A stretch of DNA of 64,000 nucleotides from a virus. Positions 2,395-44,832 of this stretch are shown in pieces. The stretch lies in IMG/VR virus record IMGVR_UViG_3300008108_000036; one strand, 5' to 3'. Every line of letters starts with the position of its first letter. Position 1 is the first letter of the stretch. The notes below the pieces were generated by a model, which did not search any database, was not told the origin of the DNA, and saw only the letters and a program-made list of their open reading frames with translations. Position numbers and translations under genes: made by a program.

Positions 2395-3825
2395 ATGATT
2401 ATTTTTGGAATAAACGAAGCTGCTCACGATGCAGGAATAACTGTTATAGAAAACGGACATATTTTATTTGCTGCTCATTCTGAGCGGTACAGCAAAATAA
2501 AAAATGACTGGTTTTTAAATGACGCTATAATTAACGAAGCTTTAAAGTACGGTCGGCCCGATGTAATTGCTTATTATGAAAAGCCTCTATTAAAACAACT
2601 GCGACTACTCATAAGAGGTGGTTTAGGTAAAAAATCTGCATTTCAAAGAAACCCACAAATAAAAAATGTTCCTGTCGTTAATTTTGGACACCATTATTCA
2701 CATGCTTCATCTGGTTATTTCACTAGTAAATTTGATGATGCTCTAATAGTTGTTGTTGATTCTATAGGAGAATTTAACACCACTACTGGCTGGATTGGGG
2801 AAGGAACGTCTATAAAAAATATTTTCAAACAAAATTATCCTTTTAGTTTTGGATTGTTTTACAGCGCGTTCACGCAATTAATTGGCTTAGAAGCTAACAA
2901 AGAGGAATATATATTAATGGGAATGGCTGCGTATGGAAATCCAAACACTTTATACAAAGAAGTAAACGAGTATTTTCCTAATATACACAGTCAAAAATAT
3001 AATTTTCATAAAGGAATTTGGGATTGGAATATACCAATAACAGAAGAAACTAAATTTGATATAGCAGCTGCAGTTCAAAAAACATATCAACAACGTTTAT
3101 TGGAACTCATGCACTTCTTAAAAAAGACTACAAAAAAGAATAAATTGGTGTTTATGGGAGGATGTGCTCTAAACTGCTCTGCAAATACGTTGCTTTGGGA
3201 TTTGTTTGATGATATTTGGATTATGCCAAACCCAGGGGACGCAGGAAGCAGTCTTGGTGCTGCTGCTGCATATTATAAAAAGCACGTTGAATGGAATACT
3301 CCATATTTGGGTTATAACATAGAAGGAGATTATCCGATTCAAAATATCTTAAACGATCTTAATACAAGAGGTATTTCTGCGGTAGCTAATGGTAAAGCGG
3401 AATTTGGACCAAGAGCATTGGGCAACAGAAGCATATTAGCTGATCCAAGAGATCCTTTTATTAAAGACAAAGTCAATGAAATCAAACAACGGGAAAAGTT
3501 CAGACCATTTGCTCCTGTCGTTTTGGAGGAATATGCTAACGAGTGGTTTGATATGAATTTTCCGTCACCTTATATGCAATACGCAACAAAATGCAAACGT
3601 CCTGCAGAAATCCCTTCCGTTGTGCACTATGACGGTACATCCAGAGTGCAAACCGTAAACAAATCGCAGCACTCCGGCTTGTACAATTTACTAAAGCAGT
3701 GGTATGATAAAACGAAGATACCTATTTTGCTTAACACGAGTTTAAACATTAAGAACCAGCCTTTATTAAACGATAAAAACGATGCCGTAGCTTGGAAGAA
3801 ATTTTACAAACGAGGAATCAATTAA
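2395..3825 (+). CDS. carbamoyltransferase (NodU/CmcH/TobZ family)
   Basis: Motifs HDAG, ERYSKIKND, HHYSHA, MGMAAYG, GGCALN, PGDAG, EFGPRALGNRS, FRPFAP, LNTSLN. Confidence 0.95.
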   Translation: MIIFGINEAAHDAGITVIENGHILFAAHSERYSKIKNDWFLNDAIINEALKYGRPDVIAYYEKPLLKQLRLLIRGGLGKKSAFQRNPQIKNVPVVNFGHHYSHASSGYFTSKFDDALIVVVDSIGEFNTTTGWIGEGTSIKNIFKQNYPFSFGLFYSAFTQLIGLEANKEEYILMGMAAYGNPNTLYKEVNEYFPNIHSQKYNFHKGIWDWNIPITEETKFDIAAAVQKTYQQRLLELMHFLKKTTKKNKLVFMGGCALNCSANTLLWDLFDDIWIMPNPGDAGSSLGAAAAYYKKHVEWNTPYLGYNIEGDYPIQNILNDLNTRGISAVANGKAEFGPRALGNRSILADPRDPFIKDKVNEIKQREKFRPFAPVVLEEYANEWFDMNFPSPYMQYATKCKRPAEIPSVVHYDGTSRVQTVNKSQHSGLYNLLKQWYDKTKIPILLNTSLNIKNQPLLNDKNDAVAWKKFYKRGIN

Positions 3826-3958: not shown

Positions 3959-4410
3959 GGGGGTGCCCTGGTTTCGACATATAGTTGAAACTAAAAGCGC
4001 ATGTAGAGGTTAATCGATGGCCTCTTTAAAAATCGATTGAACACTAAACGCAGAAGACAATACTTCTGATCTCTTAGCTGAAGCTGATTACATCTTCAAC
4101 AACGCTGATGAGTTTCTCATCGACGTTGAAGAAGCTTGTGCTCTCGAAGCCTAAGAGCCTAATAGAGGATCCTCTAAATCTATTTTGAAACGCAGAGGTT
4201 TTGATGAACTGTTAGAGATCATAGAAAAACTGATACAGAGGTAGTACAAGACCTCTCACTTGTGCAGGCAGACATAAAAATCGGTTGATACAACCATGCA
4301 GCCTTTTGTCTTTGTCACCGTAAGGTGGCTGAAATGTTGAATGTATCCAAACGTGTGAAGACCTTTTAGCTTAGGTTATATGGACAGGGGTTCGATTCCC
4401 CTCATCTCCA
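3959..4410 (+). ncRNA. ssrA: tmRNA (SsrA), one-piece, about 452 nt
   Basis: 5' GGGGGTGCCCTGGTTTCGAC; 3' GGACAGGGGTTCGATTCCCCTCATCTCCA; acceptor stem with G3.U; pk1 (GAGG/CCTC, AATCGAT/ATCGATT); resume codon after CTAAAC; CCA not encoded. Confidence 0.95.
4050..4154 (+). other. tmRNA tag ORF (A)AEDNTSDLLAEADYIFNNADEFLIDVEEACALEA*
   Basis: GCA resume codon after TAAAC, downstream of pk1; 34 codons to TAA. Confidence 0.8.
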
Positions 4411-4461
4411 ATAAAATAAAAATTGTTGAAAAACTCATAATTCAAATGTTAATCAAGTCCT

Positions 4462-4665: not shown

Positions 4666-4695
4666 CCAGCCCAAAGTTATAAATACGAACTTTAA

Positions 4696-4703
4696 CATAA
4701 GTA
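4696..4703 (+). promoter_or_regulatory. late promoter variant CATAAGTA heading the lysis operon
   Basis: Same ATAAGTA motif precedes tail sheath; 9 nt before the ATG at 4713. Confidence 0.5.
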
Positions 4704-4712
4704 GTATTTATA

Positions 4713-5393
4713 ATGAGGCATTCGCTACATAAATTAGCTCTTTTAACGTTACTTTTAATAATAGTAACTGGATGCACAATATATACAGAAAAACGCAGCG
4801 AAGCTTTGTCGCAAGCTGTCTATGCTACTTCCAGTAGCATTTTAAACGCTAGAATTGATTTTGCAGCAAAATATGCAGAACAAGCTAAGCGGTTGGCTTA
4901 TGCTCCAAAAAAACAAATCGACATTCTTCCTCTTATAACAGAAGATGTAAAAAAAATTGAGACTGTTAACAGTTCAACAAAAATTACTAGTAACTCTGCT
5001 AAAAAATCGTCCGTAATACCTACTAGCATAATAACAGCAACAACTGTAGATAATCAAAACCAAAAAATAGTACGTTTGGTTATTCCTGAATTTTTAAAAC
5101 ATGCAAAATTATTAATAGAAAATTCAGAAGAATGGAATGAATTAATTAAAAACAAAGAAATAAATCTGCAATTAGAACAAGATAAAGCAAATCTTCAAAA
5201 ACTAGCTCAAGATATTGACGCAGAATTAGCAAAGCAACAAAAATATAATTCGGAGCTACTTAACGAGCTTCACAACCTAAAAACAAAAGTAGCAGAAAAA
5301 CAAGTTACGATTTATAAATTATATATAACGATAGCTGTTTTACTTGGAGCGATTGTTGGAGGAATTTATCTTAGAATGAAAGGAATTTTTTAA
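4713..5393 (+). CDS. lipoprotein with C-terminal TM helix; candidate unimolecular spanin
   Basis: Signal peptide with lipobox IVTG|C; coiled coil; C-terminal TMD LYITIAVLLGAIVGGIYL; adjacent to holin and endolysin. Confidence 0.6.
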   Translation: MRHSLHKLALLTLLLIIVTGCTIYTEKRSEALSQAVYATSSSILNARIDFAAKYAEQAKRLAYAPKKQIDILPLITEDVKKIETVNSSTKITSNSAKKSSVIPTSIITATTVDNQNQKIVRLVIPEFLKHAKLLIENSEEWNELIKNKEINLQLEQDKANLQKLAQDIDAELAKQQKYNSELLNELHNLKTKVAEKQVTIYKLYITIAVLLGAIVGGIYLRMKGIF

Positions 5394-5396
5394 AAT

Positions 5397-5828
5397 ATGT
5401 TGTTTAATCTTAAAAATGCTATAACAACTGGATTATCGTTTTTGAGCTCAACGAAAGCTCCGCCTAATACTCCTGAATGCGAAATAGAAAGATTAAAATC
5501 TATAAATCACATGGAGTCAAAAAAATTTTATATAGTAATGACTTCGGTTATTATTCTTGCGTTTTTTTATTTTGCAAGCATAGGTATATTATTTTTAATT
5601 CCTCAAGGAACTCCTGAATTTTTTACAGGATTTGTTACTATTTTTTCTAAAACAATTGAAATTTTATCTATAATAATAGCAGCTTATGTTGGAGCTCAGG
5701 CGGTTGTTGATTTAAAATATGGAAGTAAGTCGAACGTAAGTCTAGAAAGCACCACCCATCAAGAAACTGTAGAAACATTAACAGTTATTCAAACTAATAT
5801 TAAAGAGGAGGATTATGAACTCAAATAA
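5397..5828 (+). CDS. putative holin (2 TM helices)
   Basis: Two hydrophobic segments, SKKF before TM1, AYVGAQAVVD after TM2; overlaps the endolysin start. Confidence 0.6.
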   Translation: MLFNLKNAITTGLSFLSSTKAPPNTPECEIERLKSINHMESKKFYIVMTSVIILAFFYFASIGILFLIPQGTPEFFTGFVTIFSKTIEILSIIIAAYVGAQAVVDLKYGSKSNVSLESTTHQETVETLTVIQTNIKEEDYELK

Positions 5829-6432
5829 ACCTTCAGAAAATACATTAAGTTTACTTTTACAATATGAAGTAGGTGGTGGTAAGCATTATTACGAAAAATA
5901 TCTTTCCAAATTTACATGGCCAGGAGGAGCTTCAGGACCGACGATAGCAATAGGAGTTGATTGTGCATACTATTCGAAATCGGAATTACAACACATTTTT
6001 AGCTTTTTGCCTGATGAACAAATAAAAATGATTCAGCAAGCTTCAGGAAAAACCGGATTGTCTGGTAAGGAATACACAGCAACATTGAGAGCAAAGGGAA
6101 TTGTAGTGAACTGGGAAGAAGCGCTCCAGATTTTTGAGAATTTAACATGGCCAAAGTTTACTAAATTGGCAGAAAAAACATTTCCTGGTTTAAAAGAGTT
6201 GAAACCTGACGCTTATGGAGCAATAGTTTCTTTAGTGTTTAATAGAGGAACTAGCTTAGTGGGAAATTCTAGAAAAGAAATGGTTAACATTAAAAATCTC
6301 ATTCCTGATAAAAATTACAAAAAAATAGCAAAAGAAATTCGAGCGATGAAGCGTCTCTGGGTAGGAAAAGGATTAGACGGGTTGTTAGAAAGACGTGAAG
6401 CAGAAGCAACATTAATAGAAGCTTGCGTTTAA
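5815..6432 (+). CDS. endolysin, lysozyme fold (GH24/pesticin-like)
   Basis: Catalytic E in QYEVGG, WPGGASGPTIAIGVD, AIVSLVFNRG, GLLERREAE. Confidence 0.85.
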   Translation: MNSNKPSENTLSLLLQYEVGGGKHYYEKYLSKFTWPGGASGPTIAIGVDCAYYSKSELQHIFSFLPDEQIKMIQQASGKTGLSGKEYTATLRAKGIVVNWEEALQIFENLTWPKFTKLAEKTFPGLKELKPDAYGAIVSLVFNRGTSLVGNSRKEMVNIKNLIPDKNYKKIAKEIRAMKRLWVGKGLDGLLERREAEATLIEACV

Positions 6433-6433
6433 T

Positions 6434-7342
6434 ATGAAAACGATGACTAAAAGCCAGCTAATTTTAGAGAACGAAAAATTGCTAGAAACAATTCATTCGA
6501 GACAAGGCAGTTTAAATAATTTGTCTTCATATCTCATTGAGCTTGAAAGTCAATTAGCTTTAATATTTGCTGCGTCTCCTGATATTATAGTATTTTTAGA
6601 TAAAAACGCTGATATTATTAAAATCAGTGATGCAGCATTTACTATTTTAGGATATACTAGAGCTGAGCTGATAGGTCGCTCATTATGGGAATTTATTTCA
6701 ACAGAAGATTTAAAAGACTCTAAAGAAAAATTCAATCAAATTAAAACCAAGAGCGTATCATATTTTACAGGTAACAATGCTTTTATAAACAATTGGATTT
6801 CCAAAGAAGGCCAAAAAGTACGTTTGGTTTGGCGTTTTTCTTTATGTGATGAAAAAGAAGATAAAGTTATAGGAGTAGCTTCAGATATTTCACAATTTGG
6901 TAATAATCATTTTTATAATTTTAAATTATTGCAAAATGCTGTTAATTCGTCGACAGATGGAATTGTAATTATAGAATCTGCTGAAGAATCTGCAACAGCA
7001 GTCTATGTAAATCAAGCTTACGAAAGAATGATGAACACACCGTCCGAAGAGCTAATTGGAAAATCTTTTTGGAATAACTTAACCAATGAAAGTTTGCACT
7101 CTAGAGCATTTTCTACCATTAAAACGTGTATGTTAAATGGAACAAATTGTGATGTTTTATTGCAATGTCACAAGGCAACCGGAGAGCTATTTTACGCTCG
7201 ATATGCTATTTCTGCAGTAAAAGAAAATAATATAATTGCTCATTTTATAGGAATTATACGAGACATTTCAGAAAAAATAGGAACAAAATACGAATGGTCA
7301 CCGAACTCAGAAAGCGGATTTATACATTTACATCATAACTAA
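6434..7342 (+). CDS. tandem PAS-domain protein without output domain
   Basis: PAS1: IFAASPDIIVFLD...ILGYTRAELIGRSLWEFI...IGVASDIS. PAS2: AVNSSTDGIVI...YVNQAYERM...EELIGKS...FIGIIRDIS. Confidence 0.85.
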   Translation: MKTMTKSQLILENEKLLETIHSRQGSLNNLSSYLIELESQLALIFAASPDIIVFLDKNADIIKISDAAFTILGYTRAELIGRSLWEFISTEDLKDSKEKFNQIKTKSVSYFTGNNAFINNWISKEGQKVRLVWRFSLCDEKEDKVIGVASDISQFGNNHFYNFKLLQNAVNSSTDGIVIIESAEESATAVYVNQAYERMMNTPSEELIGKSFWNNLTNESLHSRAFSTIKTCMLNGTNCDVLLQCHKATGELFYARYAISAVKENNIIAHFIGIIRDISEKIGTKYEWSPNSESGFIHLHHN

Positions 7343-7343
7343 C

Positions 7344-7751
7344 ATGAATACGGAATTTGATAATAATATAGGAAATAGTTATGAAGGAAACGGGTGGTCT
7401 AAATATCAAATGCTCGTGTTGCAGCAATTAAAAGATCATAATGCCGTGCTTCAAAATTTAAACAAAGAAATTGTTGAAGTGAAACAATTAAATGCGGTTG
7501 CTGATGCGGAGTCTAAAATGTGGAAAATAAAAGTAATGTCTGATCTCGAAAGTTTGAGATCGGATGTAGATAAAGAGTTGTACGAAGAGCATGGTATGTA
7601 CAAACGTTTATCTAAAGTTGAGCGTGATTTGGATTTAGATGACCACTTAGCAACTAAAAGCAAGGCAACATTAGCATTATATGGTTCTATTGCTATGTTT
7701 ATTCTTAATGCGTTAATCCAAATAGTTGCTATATATTTAAAAGTAAAATGA
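7344..7751 (+). CDS. coiled-coil protein with C-terminal TM anchor
   Basis: GWSKYQMLVLQQL, heptad repeats, C-terminal hydrophobic helix; 1 nt after the PAS gene. Confidence 0.6.
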   Translation: MNTEFDNNIGNSYEGNGWSKYQMLVLQQLKDHNAVLQNLNKEIVEVKQLNAVADAESKMWKIKVMSDLESLRSDVDKELYEEHGMYKRLSKVERDLDLDDHLATKSKATLALYGSIAMFILNALIQIVAIYLKVK

Positions 7752-7960
7752 GTTATTTTGGCTGTAGTATAATAAAAGATCCTGATGTAGATGAGTTGAC
7801 TTCTAAGACAAGTTTGAGAATATTAGAAATTATAGAAAAAAAACATGGACACGAAACCACAACTATTCCTAGCAATCAGATTAATTTCGTTTCTTTTGAA
7901 CAAGCCTTGTTGGAATTAATAACCCATGAGCGAAGTAAAAACAGCTCTAATAAACAATAA
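7748..7960 (+). CDS. hypothetical protein
   Basis: ATGA-coupled to the previous gene. Confidence 0.5.
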   Translation: MSYFGCSIIKDPDVDELTSKTSLRILEIIEKKHGHETTTIPSNQINFVSFEQALLELITHERSKNSSNKQ

Positions 7961-7974
7961 ATAATAGTTTCCTC

Positions 7975-8412
7975 ATGAAGTTGTTTATTGATGCAGCATT
8001 ACCTAAAAAGCAAATAAGATATTTGATGCATCTTATTGCTGTTGATTATAAAGTCACGCAGTTGTCATTTAATAGTCAAGCAAAGTCTCTTGGTGGTTCT
8101 TACAACTTCAATAAAAATAGCATTTTTATTAACAATAAACAACGCAAAAAAACCATGCTCTGCGTGTTTTTTCACGAGTTAGCTCATCATGTTGCAGTTC
8201 AACAAAAAAAATGGATGTCGTATCATGAAGGAACAGATTCTGATATTGCTCCTTCTAAACAATTTGCTATTGAAAATAAAATAGATTTAATAGCCAAATC
8301 ACTTTGGCTTAAATATGTAGACATTAAACAGTGGGGCAATTATCAATTTAGTTACCCAAAAGCAAGAAAAGGTCAGCTTTCAGCTTGGTTAGCAGACTAT
8401 AATTCAATTTAA
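7975..8412 (+). CDS. HExxH zinc-metallopeptidase-like protein (ImmA/IrrE-like)
   Basis: FFHELAHH with downstream IENKID; ATAAATA upstream. Confidence 0.6.
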   Translation: MKLFIDAALPKKQIRYLMHLIAVDYKVTQLSFNSQAKSLGGSYNFNKNSIFINNKQRKKTMLCVFFHELAHHVAVQQKKWMSYHEGTDSDIAPSKQFAIENKIDLIAKSLWLKYVDIKQWGNYQFSYPKARKGQLSAWLADYNSI

Positions 8413-8637
8413 ATGATTAACTTATCTGATTTTATTTATAAAGACGGAGATCAATTTTATTTTGATCTAGAATGCTACAACGAAGGAGATCACTTATCTA
8501 TTGATAAATCGCTAAGATTTCAAAGCGGAGACAATATTAAATTTTTTTGGGAGGGTAAAAAAATGTTTGGAACTTTGAGACATTTTGGGCAAAATGAGGA
8601 GCTTTTTATTATTGTTAATGTATCGTGCATCGAGTGA
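8413..8637 (+). CDS. hypothetical protein
   Basis: 74-aa ORF, abutting neighbours. Confidence 0.5.
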   Translation: MINLSDFIYKDGDQFYFDLECYNEGDHLSIDKSLRFQSGDNIKFFWEGKKMFGTLRHFGQNEELFIIVNVSCIE

Positions 8638-9464
8638 ATATTTTTAAAGATCTATCAACATTCAATAGAATTACATTTGTAGAAAAAACCCATACGTATT
8701 TGATAGACGGTCATTTAGCTGGCACACTATCGGTAACTGGATTGATTAAAAGATTCAAACCAGTATTTGATGTAGAAGGAGCTTCTTTAAGAGTGGCAAA
8801 AAGAAGAGGGGTTAGTCAAGATATAGTAAAACAAGAATGGACTTTAAAAAATAAATTTTCTACAACTCTTGGCAGCATTTTACACAAATATATTGAAAAC
8901 TTTTATGCTAATAAAAAAATTGCAATAGAACATGCTTTAGTATCCGAACACTTACAAACAGACCAGAAGCAAAAATTAATAGAGCGATTGCCTATTTTAG
9001 TAAGACATTTTCAGCAATTTCAACTGTTTTATTCTCACTTGCTGTGCGCTAAGACAGAATTGGTCGTTGGTGATTTAGATGAAACGAGAATATGTGGCAT
9101 GGTAGATTTGCTTTCCTATAATAGTTTGACGGATTCTTTTGAAATTATCGATTTTAAAACAAACAAAAACATTAATGTTTCATCCAAATACAATTCTATT
9201 TTAAAGGCTCCATTTGAAGATATGCCGGATTGTGAGTTGACTCACTATACAATACAATTGAATTCTTACAAATATATTATAGAAAAGTATACAAATATTA
9301 AAATTACTGGTTTGAAAATAGTTTGGTTAAATGCTGATAATGATACATTCAAAGTATTTGAGCTTCGAGATATACAAGAAAAAATTAAAGAAGCTTTTGG
9401 ATTAATTTTTGCAGAGTCAAAAATATCAGCAGAGATGAAAAATATACAAACGGAACTAATATAA
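8625..9464 (+). CDS. PD-(D/E)XK exonuclease (RecB-family, phage type)
   Basis: SVTGLI, GSILHKYIE, CGMVDLL, IIDFKT, YTIQLNSY. Confidence 0.85.
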   Translation: MHRVNIFKDLSTFNRITFVEKTHTYLIDGHLAGTLSVTGLIKRFKPVFDVEGASLRVAKRRGVSQDIVKQEWTLKNKFSTTLGSILHKYIENFYANKKIAIEHALVSEHLQTDQKQKLIERLPILVRHFQQFQLFYSHLLCAKTELVVGDLDETRICGMVDLLSYNSLTDSFEIIDFKTNKNINVSSKYNSILKAPFEDMPDCELTHYTIQLNSYKYIIEKYTNIKITGLKIVWLNADNDTFKVFELRDIQEKIKEAFGLIFAESKISAEMKNIQTELI

Positions 9465-9762
9465 TATCATCATACATAAAGCATGCTATCAACGATAGCC
9501 ACATACATATGCATAAAGGGCAAGTTATTAATTTTAAAAAAAATCGCACAACTGCAGAAATGTTTGGTTGCTCGCTTTGATGTTTTAAAAACTCTAAAAA
9601 CCCTTCATTAGGAGCTGATGATAAAAAAAGAGCATACTGAATTCTTAATTTTGTAAATAAATGGAACAATTCTAAATAAGAATATGCTGCATTAGTAGCA
9701 AACCAAATAAACATTAATAAATTTATCCAACCAATACAATAGAAAAACTCCATTAAATACAT
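9385..9762 (-). CDS. membrane protein with CxxC (DUF1360-like)
   Basis: Several TM segments and LITCPLCICMWLS; start probably 9762 or 9753 rather than 9795. Confidence 0.5.
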   Translation of the reverse strand: MYLMEFFYCIGWINLLMFIWFATNAAYSYLELFHLFTKLRIQYALFLSSAPNEGFLEFLKHQSEQPNISAVVRFFLKLITCPLCICMWLSLIACFMYDDIILVPFVYFSSLLIFLTLQKLIQKLL

Positions 9763-9772
9763 AAATATAATT

Positions 9773-10195
9773 ATGAAGTTTGACGAATTATACAAAAGCG
9801 TTTATTTGGCTGAAGAAGAAAAGCAATCTGCGGACTTACCTGCCGAGACAGAGGGTGGATCTACAGTTCCTATGCCAGAAGATTTTGATGACGTCGAACC
9901 AATTCCTCAAGCAGAGCCAGCAACTGAAACAGAAGAAGGACAACCAGTCAATTCAGAAGTTCCTACTGCTTCTACTTTAAAAGATTATATTTTTCAGTTA
10001 GAAGATTTTGCTGAAAAGCTTAATGGAATGGAAGGTAGTTCTTTACAGAGTTTAGTAGCTTCACTAGATAGACCTGGAACACCTTTTGATGGAATTTCTG
10101 GAAGAACAAAAGCTGACATTGTTAGTGTAGCAGAAACCTTGTTATCGATTTCAGAAAAACTAAAAAGCTTTATGATTAATGCTGTTAAGCGTTAA
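9773..10195 (+). CDS. acidic late protein, candidate prohead core/internal protein
   Basis: CATAAATA at 9760; N-terminus MKFDELYKSVYLAE. Confidence 0.6.
   Translation: MKFDELYKSVYLAEEEKQSADLPAETEGGSTVPMPEDFDDVEPIPQAEPATETEEGQPVNSEVPTASTLKDYIFQLEDFAEKLNGMEGSSLQSLVASLDRPGTPFDGISGRTKADIVSVAETLLSISEKLKSFMINAVKR

Positions 10196-42860: not shown

Positions 42861-44832
<1,972 letters not shown>

Follow-up and report, generated by a model that had tools for sequence, protein, structure and literature searches.

The window examined here, a 64,000-nucleotide (nt) stretch of viral DNA (IMG/VR virus record IMGVR_UViG_3300008108_000036), contains a compact cassette of six plus-strand open reading frames (ORFs) between positions 4713 and 7960, in which three putative lysis genes are followed by a gene for a tandem-PAS protein and a gene for a small membrane protein. 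The genes, termed A to F, encode a unimolecular-spanin-like protein (A, 4713-5393, 226 amino acids (aa)), a holin candidate (B, 5397-5828, 143 aa), a soluble GH24-type endolysin (C, 5815-6432, 205 aa), a protein with an N-terminal helix, a first PAS domain (PAS1), a LOV-derived second PAS domain (PAS2) and a conserved C-terminal tail (D, 6434-7342, 302 aa), a tail-anchored coiled-coil membrane protein (E, hereafter E135, 7344-7751, 135 aa) and a small soluble protein with a conserved C-terminal VSFExAL motif (F, 7748-7960, 70 aa). The junctions between successive genes measure +3, -14, +1, +1 and -4 nt, the last being an ATGA overlap, which confirms the tight six-gene lysis cassette, with gaps of 1-3 nt or overlaps, that a first-pass annotation of the sequence had proposed. 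Hydropathy analysis places one C-terminal transmembrane segment (TM) in A, two in B and one, again C-terminal, in E135, and none in C, D or F. By its sequence, the source of the window is a very divergent T4-like aquatic myovirus, with a G+C content of approximately 32% and genes for a gp43-type polymerase, a gp46-like nuclease, a gp41-like helicase, a large terminase, a tail sheath and GroEL. The best match of the DNA polymerase among cultured phages is only about 32% identical, and neither the cassette nor the PAS protein D matched any of 50,697 GenBank phages by blastn or tblastn.

For comparison, 40 loci (referred to below by L numbers) were collected by pattern scans of IMG/VR, JGI/ENA metagenomes and GTDB genomes, IMG/VR yielding nothing to a single-sequence pattern and responding to an alignment-based scan. 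PAS genes are present in 31 of these loci, a few of which are near-duplicates and 8 of which end inside or at the PAS gene. Homologues of gene F, which is optional, were detected by tblastn in L001, L002, L005, L007 and L035, and the gene is absent in L003 and L004.

Gene A encodes a lipobox signal (LLIIVTGC, with the cysteine at position 21), a central coiled coil and a C-terminal TM at residues 197-225, and thus combines in one chain the lipoprotein signal and C-terminal TM of unimolecular spanins of the T1 gp11 type. No sequence family match was found in Pfam or PHROG, and the spanin call is one of architecture only. Homologues occupy the same slot in L001, L002, L004, L012, L014, L020, L023, L028 and L035, while a two-gene spanin version, made up of a lipoprotein and a protein with a signal and a C-terminal TM, is found in L003, L005, L013, L025 and L037. 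In the two-gene format (L003 3239-4092, L005 832-1621 and, on the minus strand, L037 7713-8401), a small lipoprotein precedes a protein of 159-172 aa that has a signal-like segment at its N-terminus and a TM at its C-terminus. Both formats differ from classical i-spanins in having the inner-membrane anchor at the C-terminus.

The gene B product has a 41-residue cytoplasmic N-terminus with a conserved VPPNTP motif, two TMs (residues 42-72 and 76-107) and an acidic C-terminal tail. It is the only two-TM protein in the holin slot and shows the usual features of a holin, being a small membrane protein with a charged C-terminal tail whose gene overlaps the start of the endolysin gene, and no described holin family in Pfam or PHROG was matched at E <= 0.1. 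The strongest argument for regarding it as the candidate holin is that this one membrane-protein family is found directly before endolysins of three unrelated types (GH24, Peptidase_M15_4 and GH108). A further argument comes from two complete relatives (217 kb and 170 kb), in which the T4-type holin T (PF11031) was not found. Hole formation by the gene B product is a prediction. A lambda-like dual-start holin/antiholin arrangement was considered for gene B and discarded, since the internal Met39 is not conserved. The C-terminal tail of the candidate holin varies with the type of endolysin, reading …EDDYELK with GH24 enzymes and …SYAPLxW… with M15 enzymes.

Gene C encodes a protein without TM that matches the Pfam family Phage_lysozyme (PF00959, 1.6e-6) and PHROG endolysin families, and its start is preceded by a strong Shine-Dalgarno sequence, the only clear one among the six cassette genes. 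The endolysin slot of relatives is filled by other enzymes (L003 4539-5045, L004 6493-6969, L005 2138-2830 and, on the minus strand, L022 6269-6763), which carry Peptidase_M15_4 (with PG_binding_1 in L005) or GH108 with PG_binding_3, as compared to GH24 in the window.

Protein D contains two Pfam PAS domains and nothing else (PAS_9, 8.6e-24 and 84.2 bits against a cut-off of 27 bits; PAS, 66.7 bits), and is accordingly a member of the PAS superfamily (Pfam clan PAS_Fold). It ends 22 residues past PAS2 and has no kinase, GGDEF or HTH domain. In an AlphaFold2 monomer model built on a 26-sequence alignment (mean predicted local distance difference test score (pLDDT) 77.5), a helix at residues 6-47 is followed by two five-stranded PAS cores, PAS1 at 51-151 and PAS2 at 163-277, and by a short beta-type tail of two short strands. 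The scores are about 90 in PAS2 and the tail (about 89 for the tail strands), and residues 30-48 are of low confidence. The N-terminal coiled coil and the lack of an output domain noted in the first pass are thus both borne out, and the top Foldseek matches were likewise tandem-PAS proteins (DosP, PpsR, PAL and the Brucella LOV-PAS protein). A database search returned 132 proteins that share this architecture and a length of about 300 aa, with identities down to 38%, many of them on contigs of 70-230 kb. Along the plus strand, the long N-terminal helix (residues 1-47; 6434-6574) ends in the most invariant stretch of the family, LSxYLxELESQLALIFAASPD. PAS1 (residues 48-155; 6575-6898) is kept in every family member, including single-PAS variants, with invariant beta-sheet residues W121 and W133-S136. 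PAS2 (residues 163-280; 6920-7273), identified through its PDB relatives and a residue audit, is a degenerate LOV domain, and is followed by the tail KYEWSPNxExGF (residues 281-302; 7274-7339), in which YEWSPNxExGF belongs to the invariant parts of the family, with W288, G295 and F296 unchanged throughout. The tail is absent from the PAS1-only variant of L005.

Homology identifies PAS2 as a LOV domain by descent. In many relatives the corresponding columns read GKNCRFLQ, the LOV signature, and residues 158-286 of the window protein match the LOV cores of 5luv, 3sw1 and 8c05 with E values of 3e-12 to 2e-11 (3.2e-12 for 5luv), while a canonical family member, P0075, matches Pseudomonas short LOV proteins at 1e-26. 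The audit of LOV residues covered 111 full-length family members, 69 of which keep the adduct cysteine. Several groups, the most distant branch among them, have the full set, NCR[FMILV]LQ followed by Arg, Asn and Asn, which is therefore ancestral. In approximately 19 members the cysteine is replaced by Gly or Ala and the remaining contacts are intact, and nearly the whole family has Ser or Val in place of the I-beta Gln of classical LOV domains.

The window clade has lost the adduct cysteine. Residues 209-216 of the window protein read GKSFWNNL, and at residues 211-216 (7064-7081, plus strand) SFWNNL stands where relatives have NCRFLQ, with both the cysteine and the Arg gone. The five polar flavin-contact columns, R, Q, R, N and N in canonical members, are W, L, K, C and A in the window protein, and the clade carries Ile at one further flavin-contact column. 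PAS2 has also outpaced PAS1 in this clade only (68% versus 90% identity to P0007), the two domains evolving at equal rates in canonical pairs. Since the adduct cysteine and all polar contacts checked are lost and PAS2 is the faster-diverging domain, PAS2 of the window phage is probably a flavin-free pseudo-LOV domain. Canonical-LOV alleles hold the same cassette slot as the pseudo-LOV ones. The suggestion from the first pass that D is a sensor therefore survives as regards its PAS and LOV ancestry, but is weakened for the window copy, in which every flavin contact checked is gone from PAS2 and PAS1 has no recognisable cofactor residues.

E135, the product of the gene starting at 7344, is characterised by an invariant GWSKYQxxVLQQLxDH motif, a coiled coil and a C-terminal TM at residues 109-135; since it has no signal peptide, its soluble part is predicted to be cytoplasmic. 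It has no family annotation in Pfam or PHROG. A profile search returned 257 proteins of similar size without Pfam domains, and an exhaustive search 74 clusters, including forms of 70-130 aa that keep NGWxxYQxLVL and the TM. Its Atlas neighbours are XhlA, DUF2951 and DUF7201, and it has the architecture of XhlA, namely an N-terminal coiled coil and a single C-terminal TM in a protein encoded in a holin-endolysin cassette. The score against the XhlA family (PF10779) is nonetheless only 9.1 bits (E = 2), compared to a gathering cut-off of 34.7 bits. Weak XhlA matches were obtained for 6 out of 12 close homologues, the L004 homologue reaching 11.7 bits, and in the 217-kb relative genome the best XhlA match falls within the E135 homologue. 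Among 41 distant relatives, 8 match PHROG 1193 ('hemolysin') and 4 match XhlA, with a best value of 9.4e-5. Membership in the XhlA family was rejected, as the scores lie far under the cut-off and coiled-coil noise is as high, and the comparison supports, weakly, the statement that E135 may work like XhlA rather than that it belongs to it. An assignment as an i-spanin was also rejected, because E135 lacks a signal or TM at its N-terminus, because the soluble part is predicted to be cytoplasmic and because gene A already covers the spanin role.

The first-pass annotation had asked whether PAS genes lie beside holin and endolysin genes in related phages, and this was found to be the case across non-orthologous replacement of the endolysin. 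A homologue of E135 is the next gene after PAS in all 23 loci whose sequence continues beyond PAS, including those with a PAS identity of only 34-38%, and an endolysin gene lies directly 5' of PAS in 22 of the 27 informative loci, all five exceptions belonging to a distant branch. In L022 the order is PAS, E135 and then a convergent pair of GH108 endolysin and holin genes. PAS1-only proteins, lacking the LOV domain and tail, are encoded in L005 (2800-3315) and in L025 (1218-1676), the latter a TARA marine contig. A search with E135 as query revealed arrangements without an intact PAS gene. In L035, the genes for spanin, holin and GH24 endolysin are followed by a remnant of about 60 codons of the PAS N-terminal helix (1895-2080), which indicates a deletion, and then by E135 and F, while in L037-39 PAS is absent and E135 lies at a distance of 2 kb from a convergent spanin-holin-M15 cassette. 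In terms of genomic context, D and E135 are a conserved pair that accompanies holin-endolysin genes, with E135 as the more basal lysis-linked component and D as an optional add-on always placed directly 5' of it. The 7344 product, one of the two partners of D suggested in the first pass, is the best candidate, since it is always the next gene and stays near holin and endolysin even where PAS is missing. A cellular origin of the PAS family was also sought; among 185,579 species genomes there was a single match, on a phage-like contig of 5 kb arranged as in L029, and the family accordingly looks phage-restricted.

The distant branch has a conserved HNH endonuclease gene of 207-213 aa that lies divergently, just 5' of PAS or E135 (HNH_4, 4.7e-10 in L029). 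All copies are on the minus strand (L021 2916-3542, L027 809-1432, L029 4023-4646, L037 3251-3892 and L040 69-692), and in L029 and L040 a 77-80-aa lipoprotein gene sits between HNH and PAS or E135.

As for expression signals, the starts of D, E135 and F lie 1-4 nt from the preceding stop codon, which fits translational coupling, and no terminator-like hairpin was found on the plus strand inside the cassette. An exact copy of the T4-late-promoter-like octamer TATAAATA is located at 4678-4685 (plus strand), 28 nt before the first ATG, that of gene A. The single late motif invoked in the first pass is therefore present, just outside the interval given there, but it is plausible as a late motif without having statistical support. 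In relatives, the motif is kept only loosely 5' of the spanin gene. The relaxed form ATAAATA is found 12-34 nt ahead of several starts, including those of TerL and of the gene after F; the latter copy (7957-7963, plus strand) lies 18 nt before the next gene at 7975 and could mark the start of the next late unit.

Several features of the surrounding region were also recorded. On the 5' side, a transfer-messenger RNA (tmRNA) gene at 3959-4413 (plus strand; Rfam RF00023, 111.6 bits, E 1.7e-43, full model length), with a tag that according to ARAGORN ends in ...ALEA, is flanked by a carbamoyltransferase gene on one side and the lysis cassette on the other. The former is an auxiliary gene (2395-3825, plus strand) for a Nol-like carbamoyltransferase (PHROG 1601, 3.5e-107), and a second auxiliary gene (43210-44832, plus strand) encodes the phage GroEL chaperonin (PHROG 5725, 4.5e-176). 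On the 3' side, at 7975-9464 (plus strand), lies a trio of genes kept in all relatives, encoding a 145-aa DUF6782/M78-like metalloprotease, a 74-aa protein and a PD-(D/E)XK exonuclease (PHROG 298). In many relatives, though not in the window, an inserted DUF932 gene separates F from the trio. The end of the exonuclease gene is overlapped by an opposite-strand ORF for a 136-aa multi-TM protein (9385-9795, minus strand), which may be a real gene since a similar-looking ORF occurs in the same place in L035 (5009-5458, minus strand).

Taken together, the data are consistent with D and E135 acting as a cytoplasmic sensor and a membrane adaptor that modulate holin triggering, light-gated in relatives and light-blind in the window phage, and we would give this reading roughly an even chance of being correct. 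D would form a dimer through its N-terminal helix and PAS domains and dock at the inner membrane onto the cytoplasmic coil of E135, and E135 would in turn act on the holin, either through its TM or through the 41-residue cytoplasmic N-terminus of the holin. The signalling state of D would thereby make holin triggering occur earlier or later. In relatives with an intact LOV pocket (NCRFLQ together with R, N and N), the input would probably be blue light or the redox state of the flavin. In the window phage, where the pocket has decayed, the sensor would be light-blind and either constitutive or driven via PAS1. A wider proposal, in which a clade of aquatic T4-like phages gates its holin with a photoreceptor of its own, so that lysis timing depends on blue light or flavin redox state and some lineages have locked the switch by destroying the flavin pocket, is possible, though we consider it rather doubtful.

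A number of observations weigh against a role of the D-E135 pair in holin triggering. The lysis role of both proteins rests on gene position, and the whole neighbourhood (the metalloprotease-like gene, g74, the exonuclease gene, g140 and g335) is syntenic in most loci, so that the conserved adjacency may partly be plain collinearity. The available flanks of L029, L040, L021 and L027 contain only HNH and small lipoprotein genes, with no holin or endolysin visible. PAS has been lost, halved or deprived of its pocket several times in the family, so that its function, whatever it may be, is dispensable. Fused PAS-E135 proteins were sought and none were found, which is weak evidence. The likeness of E135 to XhlA remains under every significance threshold, with coiled-coil families scoring equally, and the TATAAATA octamer is not enriched in the window (6 found versus 9.1 expected).

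One alternative is that E135 alone serves as a lysis accessory, in the manner of an XhlA-like holin partner, and that D is merely co-transcribed with it and acts elsewhere in the cytoplasm, on host signalling, metabolism or late gene expression. The optional and evolutionarily labile nature of PAS agrees with this, as does the persistence of E135 beside lysis genes in L035 and L037-39, where PAS is missing; moreover, output-less PAS proteins and short LOV proteins have no fixed class of partner. The explanation nevertheless appears unlikely, given that PAS is never found away from E135 (23/23), even where synteny is broken (L022, L029 and L040), that the most invariant stretch of the PAS protein is its N-terminal helix, which suggests a fixed partner, and that the 1-nt spacing between D and E135 fits coupled translation.

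Alternatively, neither protein may take part in lysis, D and E135 being late membrane-associated gene products with a role in superinfection exclusion, membrane remodelling or assembly, and lying beside the lysis genes by collinearity of the clade. This would account for the synteny of approximately 6 kb of flanking genes and for the four loci in which PAS and E135 are accompanied by HNH genes and no visible holin, and the lack of a family annotation for E135 leaves room for such roles. It is more difficult to reconcile with the fact that, whether PAS is present or not, E135 still lies 0-2 kb from the holin-endolysin pair where an inversion has taken place (L022 and L037-39), with a linkage of E135 that survives three endolysin replacements and two spanin formats, and with an architecture of E135 that matches a class of lysis-cassette proteins. 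We therefore regard this explanation, too, as improbable. Finally, the first-pass idea that D is a decoy, which would heterodimerise with PAS/LOV sensor kinases or short LOV proteins of the host and block host signalling during infection, draws on the common heterodimerisation of PAS domains and on the closeness of PAS2 to bacterial short LOV proteins, but it fits poorly with the strict pairing with a phage-encoded membrane protein, with an invariant non-PAS helix and tail that point to a phage partner, and with a pocket that varies freely on a conserved scaffold, and is very unlikely to be correct.

For a lytic phage, the timing of lysis is the main life-history trait, and to our knowledge almost nothing is known about its tuning to environmental signals beyond the lysis inhibition of T-even phages. 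A sensor protein within the lysis cassette of many freshwater and some marine T4-like phages is a candidate for coupling lysis to light or to the energy state of the cell, and as such is relevant to diel variation in viral lysis in surface waters. In addition, the family provides a natural allele series, comprising canonical LOV, Cys-to-Ala/Gly, pseudo-LOV, PAS1-only and deletion forms, which makes the question directly testable. If the holin of these phages is indeed gated by a photoreceptor, they would provide the first case of a light sensor that is encoded by a phage and coupled directly to lysis. The D-E135 pair could also serve as a compact, membrane-coupled optogenetic lysis switch. Full-text searches of the literature turned up no natural LOV or PAS protein described from a phage lysis cassette; only BLUF domains from large viral scaffolds (PMC10564846) and, in a cyanophage, CBCR-like GAF folds (PMC12481020) have been reported.

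The proposed system can be compared with four known ones. VqmA-Phage of vibriophage VP882 is a quorum-sensing receptor with PAS and HTH domains, a transcription factor that controls prophage induction. It resembles D in being a phage-encoded PAS sensor that ties killing of the host to a signal, whereas D has no DNA-binding domain and its gene belongs to the lysis cassette of a phage that is T4-like and presumably lytic. In T4 itself, the antiholin RIII binds the cytoplasmic part of the holin. Lysis inhibition there involves holin T together with the periplasmic antiholin RI and the cytoplasmic regulator RIII (PMC8385771 and PMC11413866 for the system, PMC8385771 for RIII as a cytoplasmic regulator of the holin). 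The likeness is one of logic only, in that accessory proteins of a T4-like phage would set holin timing in response to a signal. There is no homology, the holin in the present cassette has two TMs and is not of the T type, and a PAS-LOV protein, as the candidate sensor, would respond to light or to an intracellular signal rather than to superinfection. No Pfam or PHROG match to any named lysis regulator was found for D, E135 or F, the RI and RIII profiles not having been searched individually.

A parallel in architecture is offered by PBSX of Bacillus subtilis, in which the membrane protein XhlA is predicted to act with the holin XhlB, and XhlA, XhlB and XlyA are all required for the endolysin-driven effects (PMC5589764). 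E135 shares the plan of XhlA: an N-terminal coiled coil in the cytoplasm is combined with a single TM at the C-terminus, and the gene is next to those of the holin and endolysin. It differs in its own invariant GWSKYQxxVLQQLxDH motif, in family scores of 9.1-11.7 bits against the required 34.7 and in its setting, which is presumably Gram-negative given the presence of a spanin, while XhlA has no sensor partner.

For D, the closest known proteins are the short, effector-less bacterial LOV proteins of the Pseudomonas PpSB1-LOV type (PDB 3sw1, 5luv, 7yx0, 7r5n and 7a6p), with which PAS2 of the D family aligns over the whole LOV core. Canonical D members keep NCRFLQ, the Arg and both Asn residues, and, like the short LOV proteins, have flanking helices and neither enzymatic nor DNA-binding output. 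In contrast to these proteins, D has an additional N-terminal coil and PAS1, and its C-terminal tail is of the beta type instead of a J-alpha helix. The I-beta Gln is mostly Ser or Val in the D family, and the window copy has neither the cysteine nor the flavin contacts checked. D is, moreover, encoded in a phage lysis cassette, where it is paired with a membrane protein.

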